Source: a candidate division FCPU426 bacterium
GTDB taxonomy: Bacteria; Oederibacteriota; Muellerivitia; Muellerivitales; Muellerivitaceae
Direction: 5' to 3'
Assembly (NCBI GenBank): GCA_963738405.1
Contig: CAVTWJ010000003.1
Span: 1-49,016, forward strand
DNA: 49,016 nt
Each line of letters starts with the position of its first letter. The stretch's first letter is position 1. Below the pieces are notes generated by a model. The model saw nothing but the letters and a program-made list of their open reading frames with translations, did not search any database and was not told the origin of the DNA. A program made the position numbers and the translations under genes. Below are positions 18,619 to 34,109 of this stretch, in pieces.

Positions 18619-18698
18619 GGCTTGCCTTTCGCTTTCAAGTGAATGGCGGGTAGTCTATCAAAAGACCTGGGTTGATTTAAGAGAACCTCCAACAATTA

Positions 18699-18840
18699 AC
18701 CACCAAGGCACCAAGACACCAAGAAAGGCCGTTTTTGTTAAAAACAGAACCGAAAGGTTCCGATTTTTTTAAGAGATGTTCTTCTTAACAATGACCAAAA
18801 TATTGTCTTGCCTCACTTGGTGTCTTGGTGCCTTGGTGGT
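18699..18840. repeat. REP/MITE-like palindromic element, copy 2
   Basis: Perfect 25-bp inverted repeat, 18699-18723 and 18816-18840. Confidence 0.9.
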
Positions 18841-18927
18841 GGAATGAGATGTTGCCTTTAGGGTTGCCAAAGACTTGCGCCTTTTGTTAAATAAGCGGGC
18901 TTTACACCAAAATTGAGGAAACAAAAA

Positions 18928-19857: not shown

Positions 19858-19884
19858 TTCTTGGTGCCTTGGTGCCTTGGTGGT
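19858..19884. repeat. Solo arm of the REP/MITE-like element (copy 3)
   Basis: TTCTTGGTGCCTTGGTGCCTTGGTGGT with no partner arm nearby. Confidence 0.8.
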
Positions 19885-19923
19885 AAATCGTAGGGAGTTG
19901 TAAGATTAACCCAGTGAGGACCT

Positions 19924-20424
19924 ATGCAGGACCCAGCTGAAATCAACAAACAAGCGGTTCTTCTATATAAGAACCAGGATTACAAAGGGGCCGAGGAACT
20001 TTATCACGAAGCCCTCAAGGCCAATCCGACCTATTTTCCCGCCCAGCTCAACCTTGGCATTCTCCTCTTCAAAACCGGCAACTACGACGAATCGATCAAA
20101 GAATGCACCAAGGCCGTCGCGCTTAACGCCGAACACCCATCCGCCCACTTTCATTTAGGCAACGCCTACTACGCCAAGATGTGGTGGGAAGAGGCCTTGG
20201 TGGAGTATGAAAGGGTTATGGCACTCGACCCCAAACACATTGATGTGCATTTTTCGCTGGGCGGCATCTACCTCAACCGGGGTCACAAGGATAAAGCGGT
20301 GGAATGCTGGAAAAAGTACTTGGAATTGGCTCCCGGGGATACGCCCAAGTGCAAGCTGGCGCTGGAATATGTCCATGGCGCCATGGCCAACCAGGTTCAT
20401 ATCGGGAAGTACATCGCGGAATAA
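19924..20424 (+). CDS. Tetratricopeptide repeat protein
   Basis: About four TPR units (AQLNLG, AHFHLGNAY, VHFSLGGIY); GAGGA RBS. Confidence 0.9.
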   Translation: MQDPAEINKQAVLLYKNQDYKGAEELYHEALKANPTYFPAQLNLGILLFKTGNYDESIKECTKAVALNAEHPSAHFHLGNAYYAKMWWEEALVEYERVMALDPKHIDVHFSLGGIYLNRGHKDKAVECWKKYLELAPGDTPKCKLALEYVHGAMANQVHIGKYIAE

Positions 20425-20454
20425 AAAAACTTAACATTTCAAATTGACACGACA

Positions 20455-20874
20455 TCAATTTTCTTTGGTGTTATGCCTGAAATAGGTCAGAAATTCCGAG
20501 GGCGAGAGAATTTTCACGTTTCGGGACCGTTCTTTGGGGAAATGTCTGGCATTTCCGGTGATCAACACGGCAGCCCCACCTGATAAAGCCACTTCCAGGA
20601 AGGCCTCATCATCAGGATCCGTTAAGGGGTGCGGGAGGGGTTCGGACGCGACGGGAGCCCCGCTCGACAGTATTTGAGCCAACAAGTCATCCACATCCTT
20701 CTTTCGAAAAGGGAATCCGTTCCGGGCTAATACGGACTGGTACTCGGTGAACATTCGCGCGTCGTGTAAGGGGCAGAGCGTGCCGGAGGCGATCATGCGG
20801 ATGATCTCCCCCGAGGGGCCCCAGGGGGTGAGCAAACCCGAAACCAGCACATTCGTGTCAACCACCACCCTCAA
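20455..20874 (-). CDS. PIN-family toxin (VapC-like)
   Basis: MRVVVDTNVLVSGL, DPDDEAFLEVA, LITGNARHF. Confidence 0.9.
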   Translation of the reverse strand: MRVVVDTNVLVSGLLTPWGPSGEIIRMIASGTLCPLHDARMFTEYQSVLARNGFPFRKKDVDDLLAQILSSGAPVASEPLPHPLTDPDDEAFLEVALSGGAAVLITGNARHFPKERSRNVKILSPSEFLTYFRHNTKEN

Positions 20875-21161
20875 CGAGAGCGGCCCTTGCGCGTCTTGTC
20901 GATGATCCGGTTGATGTCCTTCAGGGAAAGCTTGTCTAGTCCGGCCTCCACGGAGGCAGTTTGCATCCTTTCCACCGCCGCGACCGCGCGCGCGCGGCGG
21001 ACGGCCGCCACCGAGTTTTCCACATCGGCGTCCTTGAGGGAAGAAAGAAGCGCCATGGGCTTGCCGTTGTTGGTCAGGATCAAATCCCCTTCTTTCGCCA
21101 AATCTTTCCAGACCTGACCGGATTTTTCCCTAAAGTCCCTGACGGAAATGAATTTAAGCAT
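20871..21161 (-). CDS. Phd/YefM-like antitoxin
   Basis: MLKFISVRDFR..LILTNNGKPMALL; GGAGGG RBS; overlaps the toxin start. Confidence 0.85.
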   Translation of the reverse strand: MLKFISVRDFREKSGQVWKDLAKEGDLILTNNGKPMALLSSLKDADVENSVAAVRRARAVAAVERMQTASVEAGLDKLSLKDINRIIDKTRKGRSR

Positions 21162-21173
21162 GAGTTCCCTCCA

Positions 21174-21198
21174 ATTGTGTACCATTAGTGTACACAAT
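21174..21198. promoter_or_regulatory. TA operator palindrome overlapping the promoter
   Basis: ATTGTGTAC-N7-GTACACAAT, overlapping a TTGAAA..TACACT promoter-like pair on the minus strand. Confidence 0.7.
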
Positions 21199-21399
21199 AT
21201 TTCATCATTTTCAAGACGGCACTGCGTGACACCCCCAAGGTCTATCAGGTTCATATCGGGAAGTACATCGCTGAATAATAAGCAGAGATCAATTTCTTTT
21301 TTTAGTCCTTCACAAAGTGGAAAATGGTGGCCAGATACCTTTTTTTTATTTGCATATCGGGAAATACATCGCCGAATAAAGTCTAAGTCCAAACCGATT

Positions 21400-21509
21400 T
21401 TCACCACCAAGACACAAAGACACCAAGGTAGGCCAAAAAGTTTTGGATTTACGTCTTTTTTCATCCCTGTTTAACGAAGTTCTTGGTGACTTGGTGTCTT
21501 GGTGGTGAA
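21400..21509. repeat. REP/MITE-like palindromic element, copy 4
   Basis: TTCACCACCAAGACACAAAGACACCAAG ... CTTGGTGACTTGGTGTCTTGGTGGTGAA. Confidence 0.85.
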
Positions 21510-30674: not shown

Positions 30675-30807
30675 TCCTTTAAATTCCAAACCCTTTTCTG
30701 TATACTCACGCCTCCCCAAAGGCAATTTTCGTTGTTTTTTGTGGTTGAGCCGGTCAAAGACCCGCCAATAACTAACCGTACATAGCCGGGACAAAGAGGA
30801 TTTGTTT

Positions 30808-32673
30808 ATGACACGCAGGGAAGACTTACGCAATATCGCCATCATCGCCCACGTTGACCATGGAAAAACCACGCTCGTGGATGCCTTGTTCAAACAGTCG
30901 GGTGTATTTCGCGCCAATGAGCACATGGAAGAACGGGTCATGGATTCCAACGACCTGGAAAAAGAACGCGGTATCACCATTTTCTCCAAGAACGCCTCGG
31001 TTATTTGGAATGGGATCCGTATCAACATCGTGGACACGCCGGGTCACGCCGACTTTGGCGGGGAAGTGGAACGTATTCTTTCGATGGTGGATGGTGTTCT
31101 CTTATTAGTAGACGCCGCCGAAGGCCCCCTGCCCCAGACCAAGTTCGTTCTTCGCAAGAGCCTGGAACAAAACCTGGACGCTATCGTTGTCATCAATAAG
31201 ATCGACCGAAAAGATGCCCGCCCCCACGAAGTGGTGGACGCGGTGTTGGACCTCTTTATTGCCTTGGGCGCCAATGAGCACCAAATCGGCTACCCGGTGG
31301 TTTATGCCGTTGCCCGTGAAGGCAAGGCATCGATGAGCCTTGAACAACCCGGTACGGACTTAAAGCCGCTTTTTGACACCATCGTGAACCATTTCAAACC
31401 TGTTGAAGTGGATTTGGAATCGCCTTTCCAAATGTTGGTCACCACGACCTCTTATAACGAATACCTGGGGCGTATGGCCGTGGGACGCGTCAAGCGCGGC
31501 AAGATCAAGCTGAACGATCCTATTACCCTCATCAAGCTGGATGGCCGCAAGGTCAACAGCAACGCCACCAAACTTTTTACCTACAACGGCATCAAGCAGG
31601 TCGAGTGCCCGGAAGCACAGGCGGGGGATATCATCCTCTTAGCCGGATTGGAAGACGTGCAAATCGGGGAAACAGTGGCTTCCACCGATGATCCAACCGC
31701 TTTGCCTTCTATCGCCATCGACGAACCCACCATGTCCATGGTTTTCTCGGTCAACAACAGCCCCTTCGCCGGTAAAGAAGGGAAGTTTGTGACTTCCCGC
31801 CACTTGCGGGACCGCTTATATAAAGAAGCTGAAGCCAACCCCACCTTGAAAATCAGCGATACCGAAAGCCCGGACGCCTATAAAGTGGCGGGCCGCGGTG
31901 AATTGCACTTGGGCATCTTGATTGAAACCATGCGCCGTGAAGGTTTCGAGTTCCAGGTTTCCAGGCCCCAGGTTATTTTCAAAATGGTGGATAAGAAACT
32001 GGAAGAGCCTTACGAAAACCTGATCGTGGACGTTCCCAACAATTGCGTGGGGATTGCCATGGAAAAATTGGGAGCCCGCAAAGGCGAAATGAAGAACATG
32101 GTGCCCTTATCTGAAGTGGCCACCCGTATTGAGTTTTTGATTCCTTCACGTTGTCTCTTGGGTTTCCGCACCGAATTCATGACTGACACAAAGGGTGAAG
32201 GCGTTTTGCACCATGTGTTTTCCGGATACGGCGAATACAAGGGCGATATCGGCGGAAGAAGCCGGGGCGTTCTGGTGGCTTTTGAAGCGGGCGTGACCGC
32301 AGCTTACGGCATGTTCCAGTTGGCCGACCGTGGAAAGTTTTTCATCAACCCCCGCTTGGAAGTTTATGAGGGCATGATTGTGGGCGAGCATACCCGCGAA
32401 AACGATATCGCGGTGAACCCCTGCAAAACCAAGCATTTGAGCAACATGCGAAGCAAGTCTTCTGATGAAGCCTTGACCATGGAACCACCCACCATTTTCT
32501 CATTGGAACAATGCCTGGAATACATTCAGGACGACGAGCTTTTGGAAGTGACACCCCAGAACCTGCGCATGCGTAAGAAGATTTTGAACAATAACGAGCG
32601 CATGAAGGCGGAGAAACAGACAGCCAAGTCTTCGATGAAGCAGATCATGGAACAGGTCAACCCAAGGGCTTAA
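30808..32673 (+). CDS. typA: Translational GTPase TypA/BipA
   Basis: [48 protein letters not shown]. Confidence 0.98.
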
Positions 32674-32779: not shown

Positions 32780-33241
32780 ATGAAACCCCTTCGGATATAC
32801 CTGGATACCTCAGTGTTTGGCGGGTATTTCGACAAGGAATTTTCGAGAGATTCCGCTAGGATTTTTGGTGCGGTTCGTGAAGGACGATTGAAAATTGTTT
32901 TGGGTGGGTTGGTCGGATTGGAGTTGAGGGCGGCTCCCATAGAGGTCCGGGATTTGTTGAAATCCCTTCCGACGGAACAAGTGGAGGAAGTTGAATTCAG
33001 CCGGGAGGCCGAGGATTTGCAAACGGCCTATTTGGAAGCGGGCATCCTAACGCCTAACTCGGCCACAGACGCGGGCCACGTGGCAACGGCCACAGTTTAC
33101 CGGGCGGACGCTATTGTGTCGTGGAACTTCAAACACATCGTTCGGCTTGAAAAAATGAAGCTGTACAACCAGATTAACCTAAAGAATGGGTACGGGTTTT
33201 TGCAGATCGTTTCACCGAGGGAGGTGTTGAGCGATGAATGA
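32780..33241 (+). CDS. PIN-domain protein (toxin-like)
   Basis: IYLDTSVFGGYFD, DAGHVATA, IVSWNFKHIV. Confidence 0.88.
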   Translation: MKPLRIYLDTSVFGGYFDKEFSRDSARIFGAVREGRLKIVLGGLVGLELRAAPIEVRDLLKSLPTEQVEEVEFSREAEDLQTAYLEAGILTPNSATDAGHVATATVYRADAIVSWNFKHIVRLEKMKLYNQINLKNGYGFLQIVSPREVLSDE

Positions 33242-33431
33242 GGAAAAACCGAAGATTATAGAGGGGTTCGACTGCATCGCCTTCAAGCGCAAAGTGCAGG
33301 AACAAATCTATCAGGAAACGAAAGATATGACGCCGGAACAGTATTTAGAATATGTCCACCGGAGCGTTCAAGAAGGCGAGATGGGCGAGATATGGCGGAA
33401 GTTTCAGAAAAAACCGGCCGCCAGGGGTTAA
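33234..33431 (+). CDS. Small putative antitoxin
   Basis: GGAGG RBS; overlaps the PIN stop; FDCIAFKRKVQEQIYQETKDMT. Confidence 0.7.
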   Translation: MNEEKPKIIEGFDCIAFKRKVQEQIYQETKDMTPEQYLEYVHRSVQEGEMGEIWRKFQKKPAARG

Positions 33432-33442
33432 AGAAACCTAGT

Positions 33443-33655
33443 ATGAAATTAAATTATGATAAAAATACAGATTCTCTTTATATCGAACTATCCGAAAATC
33501 CGAGCGTGGATAGCAATGAGGTTTCGAACGGAGTCGTTTGGGATTTTGATAAAAGTGGAATATTGGTTGGAATTGACGTGCAACATGCCAGTCAAACCTT
33601 GGATTTGAAACACTTAGAAACGGGTTCTCTGCCTTTGGCAGCTTCTGGTAAATAA
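33443..33655 (+). CDS. DUF2283 family protein
   Basis: MKLNYDKNTDSLYIEL..DFDKSGILVGIDVQHAS. Confidence 0.85.
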   Translation: MKLNYDKNTDSLYIELSENPSVDSNEVSNGVVWDFDKSGILVGIDVQHASQTLDLKHLETGSLPLAASGK

Positions 33656-33758
33656 AACTCAACCTTTTAATAATTAACAACATGAAGTGCATGAAGGCGG
33701 AAAAGCAGACGGCCAAGTCTTCGCTGAAGTTGGCCATGGAACAGGTCAACCCAAGAGC

Positions 33759-34109
33759 TTAAGCGGGAAGGTCGCTTTTGGTAGTCTTTTCTTTGGCCTT
33801 AAAAAACTTTGCCGCTTCTGACAATAGAATCCATACCCAAAACGGAATAAATGTAAGCGCCATGGATATAAGGAATGCCATTGCATTTCCGCTGTCCTCT
33901 TTATATTTCAAGAATCTTAAAACGTATTGACTGCCGAAACAAAGAGATGAAATTGGAACGAGAATCCAACACCAATAGGCAAACGCAGCAACTATCACAA
34001 ACCTCATTTTCGTAATTTTGGTCAGAGGGAATATCTTTTTCACTGTCAAATACTCTAAAAATGCCCCCGTCAATCCAGTCAAAAAACCAAAAAAGATAGC
34101 TATTAACAA
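33759..34109 (-). CDS. Small AT-rich membrane protein (3 TM)
   Basis: GAGGAG RBS before TTG; three hydrophobic stretches. Confidence 0.65.
   Translation of the reverse strand: MLIAIFFGFLTGLTGAFLEYLTVKKIFPLTKITKMRFVIVAAFAYWCWILVPISSLCFGSQYVLRFLKYKEDSGNAMAFLISMALTFIPFWVWILLSEAAKFFKAKEKTTKSDLPA

Follow-up and report, generated by a model that had tools for sequence, protein, structure and literature searches.

The window analysed here is a stretch of 49,016 nucleotides, and the host gene of interest in it encodes a TPR protein of 166 aa (19924-20424, plus strand). The gene was recognised as an open reading frame and by profile search, lies behind hisG and is conserved across the family. Its end is present in three copies of 33, 33 and 27 nt. 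Copy 1 (20392-20424, plus strand) is the working gene end, comprising the last 10 codons and the TAA stop. Copy 2 (21246-21278, plus strand, 33 nt) and copy 3 (21353-21379, plus strand, 27 nt) are orphan tails, spaced 854 nt from copy 1 and 101 nt from copy 2, respectively. Copy 2 differs from copy 1 by one silent mismatch (GCG to GCT), and copy 3 by two (AAG to AAA and GCG to GCC). The 27-mer occurs three times in the window at up to three mismatches, against 0.00 expected from 100 shuffles, and no fourth copy was found anywhere in the 3.18-Mb genome at up to five mismatches. Repeat alignment and shuffling thus confirm what the first-pass annotation had described, three copies of the gene end with silent differences only, and the observation is real and not an artefact as far as it can be tested.

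Between copies 1 and 2 lies a complete operon on the minus strand, trimmed to about 30 nt on each side. It consists of a PIN_3-domain toxin gene of 139 aa (20455-20874; PF13470, E 3.5e-21), whose stop is 30 nt from copy 1, and a Phd/YefM-like antitoxin gene of 96 aa (20871-21161; PF02604, E 1.4e-5), which overlaps the toxin start and whose match of 25.2 bits is under the Pfam cut-off of 29.8. A promoter-like site on the same strand (21174-21214) has its -35 box at 21214-21209 and its -10 box at 21192-21187. Over this sigma70-like promoter, TTGAAA-16-TACACT, extends a 9-bp inverted repeat (21174-21182/21190-21198), which is likely to be an autoregulatory operator. The overlapping genes and the palindromic candidate operator give the pair the layout of a type II toxin-antitoxin (TA) system, and we treat it as a predicted one. 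The earlier claim of a complete Phd-PIN operon with its operator is hence upheld by the profiles and the palindrome, with the function of the operator inferred and the antitoxin below the Pfam cut-off.

The AT-rich spacer between copies 2 and 3 (21279-21352, 74 nt) has no ORF and no structure (z 0.6), and elsewhere only weak T-rich matches to it were seen. Its reading as the remnant of a cassette, proposed for a piece of about 75 bp, is not supported, and the spacer may be either a cargo-less insert or an eroded one. A REP-like hairpin pair (21400-21509; structure z -5.7) begins 20 nt beyond copy 3. It belongs to a repeat family with 84 core matches in the genome and with members at 18696-18844, 19858-19888 and 21400-21509 in the window. 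The pair is probably context, since such a repeat adjoins only one of the 11 orphan tails of the genome described below, and for the same reason the family was rejected as a driver in the source genome. No recombinase is encoded in the unit, as had been noted. Profile search gave no tyrosine recombinase on this contig, and all nine matches in the source genome lie on other contigs; no PF00239 resolvase was found in the assembly, which is 90.66% complete. None of the matched recombinases is near any duplication event of the source genome.

Orthologs of the TPR gene, 70-86% identical, are present in most genomes of the family, and hisG is upstream in 20 of 20 relative loci. A duplicate of the tail was found in one of these 20, in a genome of the same genus (G001), where the repeat is 189 nt long and runs 30 nt past the stop; the cargo there is different, 2.75 kb in size, and includes a PIN_3 pair and an AAA-DUF4143 gene. 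Another genome, G002, has a VapBC pair near the TPR gene with no duplicate of the tail, and a pattern scan of metagenomes gave no duplicate at 11 loci. In G003, of the same genus, the ortholog (C27:3-479) breaks off with its contig, seven codons short of the stop and at the duplicated tail. The gene downstream of the TPR gene is not conserved among the 20 relatives, so that no empty site could be aligned, and neither a donor, an empty site nor a circular form of the unit was found among the relative and metagenome loci compared. A DNA search with the Phd-PIN cassette in 99 genomes of the phylum gave only partial matches of 65-90%, in eight other genomes. The comparison with relatives has therefore provided one alternative cargo, in G001, but no empty site, and duplication in one of 20 relatives and none of 11 metagenome loci. 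The three copies taken alone show three silent changes in two codons. If an exact duplicate had been made, with the working copy drifting silently and the orphan decaying neutrally, 36-44% of the differences would be silent, and three of three would have a probability of 0.05-0.09 (0.36^3 to 0.44^3). Silent-only divergence at this locus is therefore weak evidence.

The same architecture is found genome-wide. Genes were called with a simple caller (2637 genes) and scanned for repeats; in the raw scan of 2444 genes there were 12 with downstream matches to their tail and 10 with upstream matches to their head, from which visual inspection eliminated false rows (an ORF abutting a CRISPR, ends of paralogous domains, repeats of a 28-bp site and tRNA repeats). 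At 11 host genes an orphan tail of about 27-154 nt lies behind a cargo of more than 600 nt, as the first-pass annotation had led one to expect for downstream duplicates of gene ends. The host genes are the TPR gene, typA, an MFS transporter, a ZIP transporter, a TonB receptor, a glyoxalase, prfC and four unnamed genes. The cargoes are Phd-PIN_3, PIN-like with DUF2283, MNT-HepT, Phd-ParE, MazE-PemK, BrnT-RHH, a zeta toxin, an HTH_3 pair (TA-like by layout), DUF4258, a glycosyltransferase and one unknown, so that 8 of the 11 units carry TA or TA-like cargo. The homology between the tail copies mostly stops within a few bases of the stop codon.

The second host gene in the window, which the first-pass annotation had overlooked and which was found by repeat scan and profile search, is typA/bipA (30802-32673, plus strand). 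It is followed on the same strand by its cargo (32780-33655), made up of a PIN-like ORF (153 aa, weak, PIN_3 E 0.0026), a 65-aa ORF and a DUF2283 ORF, and by an orphan tail (33689-33762, plus strand) of about 75 nt that is 88% identical to the working end. The orphan has four silent and five replacement differences, and the replacements resemble alleles of the same genus. In relatives the gene after the orphan directly follows the host gene at 9 of 28 loci for typA (within 400 nt), at 4 of 4 for the C21 gene and at 2 of 4 for the ZIP gene, which identifies these units as insertions. At the TPR, typA, ZIP, MFS, C21 and glyoxalase ends, the cargo of the source genome was found in none of the relatives examined. 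With two to five relatives per gene, typA and MFS lean towards the orphan being the resident-like copy, ZIP and glyoxalase lean the opposite way, and TPR and C21 gave no lean, so that polarity in the source genome is mixed overall.

Duplication is not particular to 3' ends, as had been supposed, since gene starts are duplicated in mirror image, for example that of a DUF4139 gene with a Phd and FitA-PIN cargo. The start of an epimerase gene (L062, C22:133733-134016) is present three times with no cargo gene; there the oldest copy has diverged at silent sites, and one unit of 122 nt is repeated without any change. A nested stack was seen at another locus (L065, C23:10525-15268), where a 143-aa gene has its end in four copies, with a zeta-toxin cargo first, and the TonB-receptor end with about 95 nt is duplicated around the HTH_3 pair.

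Among TA genes of the source genome, 10 of 25 are bracketed by repeats, compared with 41 of 601 and 25 of 1213 in two controls that include TA partner genes. Five of the ten (four events) are bracketed by host-gene boundaries, three by a 28-bp site family, one by a TA-internal duplication and one by a bracket of unclear kind. The 28-bp palindromic site is a different, shared one that separates TA cassettes at L056 (C6:3236-5310), from C23:153718 onward and at L224, L230, L233 and L266; it also occurs in relatives. Gene-tail bracketing is rare in the source genome's own family, where outside the source genome it was seen at 1 of 22 PIN_3 loci and 0 of 22 ParE loci, i.e., 1 of 44 TA loci (cupin control, 0 of 25).

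Homologs of the PIN toxin from other phyla were collected at 80 loci, of which 73 had enough flank for the bracket test. A direct repeat within 1.5 kb brackets 14 of the 73, against 2 of 372 control windows from the same loci. The bracketing host genes are mutually unrelated (recJ, an acyl-CoA dehydrogenase in two sister genomes, etfA, guaA, a XerC/D-like gene and an AAA-DUF4143 gene), and the end of ahcY brackets a further homolog at 1.8 kb; the other brackets are gene starts and some intergenic repeats. No shared motif above shuffles was found at 17 junctions, and one high-scoring motif was rejected since the identical TPR sequence had been entered twice. Around homologs from Burkholderiales no repeats were found (0 of 6). 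At two acyl-CoA dehydrogenase ends of that order (L316, L321), tail copies of 17-24 nt lie about 24 nt past the stop with no cargo.

A search of Anaerolineales with the etfA cassette gave three homologs at the DNA level, one unbracketed, one at the start of glyQ and one in a stack at the end of an aldehyde dehydrogenase (ALDH) gene. At glyQ (L345, 2386-3370) a TA operon lies inside a duplicated promoter and start, and the two copies encode different N-termini and differ in promoter spacing. The ALDH stack (L346, 861-3150) has four copies of the gene end, with PemK, PIN_3 and DUF4160/DUF2442 operons between them. In a survey of the best 41 loci in 40 genomes, among 63 matching of 251 searched, one to three orphan tails were present at 16 of the 41, and the ALDH end (L346, L379-L418) presents itself as a hotspot of stacked TA cassettes. 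The same cassettes are met again in other species and in other combinations, at 80-88% identity. In several of them a TATAAT-like box stands at the beginning, within about 10 nt of the stop codon of the host gene, and the tail may therefore supply part of the cassette promoter. In L396 and L404, DUF559 genes flanked by C-rich/G-rich palindromic repeats lie directly behind the ALDH stop. No integrase, resolvase or transposase family was matched by any of 51 ORFs in or beside the arrays (51 of the 58 listed, seven shadow frames being left out); a transposase-like HTH ORF lies just beyond the array of G464. Stacking at a gene end where no recombinase gene is present, as postulated from the TPR locus, thus has support in Anaerolineales, where it recurs between species at one gene end.

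In the ALDH arrays, DNA after the last orphan in G648, G339, G637 and G630 corresponds to the DNA after the working stop in the cassette-free genomes G628, G640, G649, G616 and G684. A 264-nt orphan in G606 has 8 mismatches to G716 (96.4% identity) and 38 to its own gene, while the ALDH genes of the two genomes are 77.7% identical. Similarly, the PemK cassettes of G606 and G726 are 84.7% identical against 74.9% for ALDH, and the MNT-HepT cassettes of G606 and G654 are 84.0% identical against 78.4%. By these alignments, some cassettes are closer to each other between clades than the host genes are, and TA cassettes appear to move between species at the ALDH gene end. Of 21 cleanly aligned orphans, 19 are closer to a working tail of another genome than to their own, which for 27-mers is partly chance. 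The idea that the old end is pushed downstream fits by position in several ALDH cases, but the longest orphan tested, that of G606, is a foreign allele, and polarity in the source genome is mixed. Left boundaries of the orphans range from -265 to -28; about half have a recurrent boundary at -29, behind one REP-like motif. The last 10 ALDH codons are more uniform, with a majority-codon fraction of 0.90 against 0.77-0.78.

Pooled over 22 tail pairs, there are 100 silent and 51 replacement differences (66% silent; null 0.36-0.44, p 9.5e-14 to 4.6e-8, values that overstate the bias since orphans are not independent samples). In ALDH, 21 of 24 orphans, three having been dropped, show 89 silent and 33 replacement changes (73% silent). 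At a locus that two genomes share (L130/L131), a silent difference can be seen to arise in the working copy after insertion. Judged from the pooled comparison, and directly for G606, the tail copies behave as alleles of different lineages and not as decayed exact duplicates. The first-pass conclusion that each copy once served as the coding end consequently gains from the pooled tails, and little from the TPR locus itself.

We regard it as probable that these structures arise by RecA-type, homology-anchored capture of DNA from a related lineage, gene tail together with cargo, with no need for a site-specific recombinase, and that the TPR locus is a small instance of this recurrent accretion process. 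The unit would be a piece of related-lineage DNA made up of the conserved host-gene end and the donor DNA that followed it, in this case a self-contained TA operon with its promoter. The piece would enter probably by natural transformation, and host recombination, presumably through RecA, would use the shared gene end as the sole homology. Either the piece would close into a circle and integrate through a single crossover within the tail, or one side would be anchored by the gene and the other joined illegitimately, likewise within the tail. In both cases the host gene would stay whole, a second allele of its end would be left behind the cargo, and repetition would stack units. A flanked unit could also excise and re-enter through the same tails, and toxin addiction would favour the survival of an otherwise unstable direct-repeat structure. 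Homology would stop at the stop codon since conservation between the two lineages is limited to coding sequence; the left boundary would vary as it is not a recombinase site, and polarity would be mixed as the crossover position decides which copy is foreign. Recombination with one anchor would account for allelic tails, the boundary at the stop codon, variable left ends and stacking, and for the mirror and cargo-less cases too. The route of uptake, the dependence on RecA, the circular or linear intermediate, the role of addiction and the first landing of a TA operon beside a new gene are parts of this account that we infer.

Several observations count against the model or its generality. A repeat of 27-33 nt, as at the TPR gene, is short for RecA. 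The rarity in the family (1 of 44), the absence of repeats at the Burkholderiales homologs (0 of 6) and the recurrent -29 boundary at ALDH weigh in the same direction, as does the lack of a ComEC match in the source genome itself; in favour of the model, ComEC was found in 15 of 15 genomes of the family. Cassette accretion at protein-coding gene ends, the mechanism first put forward for this locus, accordingly holds in that the pattern recurs at many unrelated genes and stacks in Anaerolineales, and needs amendment in that cargo can be absent, gene starts are involved, and neither donor nor empty site was found for the TPR unit among the loci compared.

The main rival is a lost or trans-acting integrase. 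The units would then be non-autonomous or decayed integrative elements whose tyrosine integrase is lost or supplied in trans, with the gene end as attB and the TA operon as the last survivor. One of the bracketing genes, guaA, is a target used by integrases. The recurrent -29 boundary and the uniform last 10 codons of ALDH would equally fit a fixed att site, and both the nine tyrosine-recombinase matches in the source genome and the transposase-like ORF near the G464 array suit this explanation. A restored target with a displaced fragment is the textbook signature of an island (PMC4383910), and streamlining of TA systems from mobile elements has been proposed (PMC13617665). Nevertheless, the targets are unrelated and have no common motif, the boundaries at the single ALDH gene span -265 to -28, and gene starts are duplicated as well. 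Trimming an island to less than 1 kb should take time, yet the orphans are mostly undecayed; no family of mobility genes was matched in the ALDH arrays, and no source-genome recombinase is near the events. Taken together, we consider an integrase unlikely.

Less probable still is an exact long duplication of the target, produced when break repair captures foreign DNA, after which the working copy would drift at silent sites and the orphan would decay neutrally. It is known for restriction-modification genes (PMC2853133), the bracketing copies are in some cases identical or extend beyond the stop (L124, G001), the orphan of L131 decays non-silently, and the process could explain how a TA operon comes to lie beside a new gene in the first place. 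At the TPR locus, taken by itself, it is possible. It predicts, however, that 36-44% of the differences are silent, where 66% (22 pairs) and 73% (ALDH) were observed, and it cannot yield an orphan such as that of G606, with 96% identity to the allele of another clade. Vertical inheritance of an old ancestral array, with cassettes lost differentially by recombination between tails, is very improbable. The cassettes of G606, G464 and G653 stand in orders that are compatible with one another, and L130 and L131 have one cassette in common by vertical descent, at about 93-95% identity; but the resemblance of cassettes between clades exceeds that of the host gene, decay over all codon positions would be expected of old orphans, and the other examined species of the genus do not have the source-genome cargoes. 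An assembly artefact, in which strain haplotypes are concatenated through a short shared repeat, is conceivable for a 23-contig assembly but hardly credible for an architecture that occurs at 11 genes, is duplicated alike at one locus in two independent assemblies (L130, L131) and is present in megabase contigs of G648, G630, G629 and G654.

If homology-anchored capture is the process, our results suggest that one conserved gene end would suffice for the spread of chromosomal TA operons that have no mobility gene, and since one gene end is enough, a cassette could enter any genome with an ortholog, whatever lies downstream. The orphan tails would form a readable record, each a barcode of a donor or a former allele, and the signature is easy to scan for. 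More tentatively, tail-tagged TA cassettes may be widespread, unrecognised mobile units that use the end or start of a housekeeping gene as attachment site, form sub-kilobase circles, cross species and genera and build integron-like arrays by host recombination alone, a proposal to which we give somewhat less than even chances.

Our literature search, with most subscription papers outside its coverage, found no account of TA arrays whose units are separated by allelic gene tails. Furuta et al. 2010 (PMC2853133) described restriction-modification genes inserted with long target duplication, defined by a direct repeat of more than 30 bp, an insert of less than 20 kb and no mobility gene. The TPR unit falls within this definition with its 33-nt repeat, 854-nt length and lack of a mobility gene, while copy 3 (27 nt) is under the threshold. 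Both are addictive gene pairs between long variable direct repeats; that class is mostly from naturally competent species, and amplification and release through the repeats have been proposed for it. The cargo here, in contrast, is a TA operon with no restriction-modification pair or DNA-cutting restriction enzyme, the repeats, which reach no further than the stop codon, are coding ends with allele-like differences, and the units stack; the parts of that paper drawn on here do not treat allelic origin or stacking. In Escherichia coli, recircularised incoming DNA integrated by single crossover (PMC3240628), leaving a partial duplication of the gene end in 56 of 60 clones (109-950 bp in 14 sequenced clones), with a laboratory plasmid and at a frequency of about 6e-9. 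There too one homologous gene piece suffices, by single crossover or homology-facilitated illegitimate recombination; the present cases are natural, cross species, have repeats down to 27 nt and are repeated at one site.

Displacement arrays of T6SS effector-immunity and Rhs/CDI genes (PMC5361080) resemble the present arrays in entry at the front, an upstream homology anchor, older pieces shifting back and the lack of an integrase, and those arrays then spread by homologous recombination. In them the variable tip of the anchor gene is the cargo, whereas here the cargo is a separate operon and the end of the housekeeping anchor is unchanged. Minimal mobile elements (PMC3787668) and TA islets (PMC13617665) are likewise small, recombinase-free sets that recombine homologously at conserved genes, but they depend on a conserved gene at either side and leave nothing duplicated. 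For the islets, TA spread is attributed to recombination at two flanking core genes; that paper nowhere uses the term 'direct repeat' in its main text, and its one duplicated site is a 24-bp res-like palindrome. With integrase islands (PMC4383910) the units have in common the restored gene and displaced fragment, and they differ in having no integrase; their boundaries vary (33 against 27 nt at the TPR gene, 189 nt in G001, -265 to -28 at ALDH), although -29 recurs at ALDH. They stack TA cassettes as integron arrays do; unlike in integron and CALIN arrays, no shared attC-like site was found at the 17 junctions compared, and the repeats are host-gene ends. The units therefore depart in a defining feature from integrase islands, from integrons and from the restriction-modification class.
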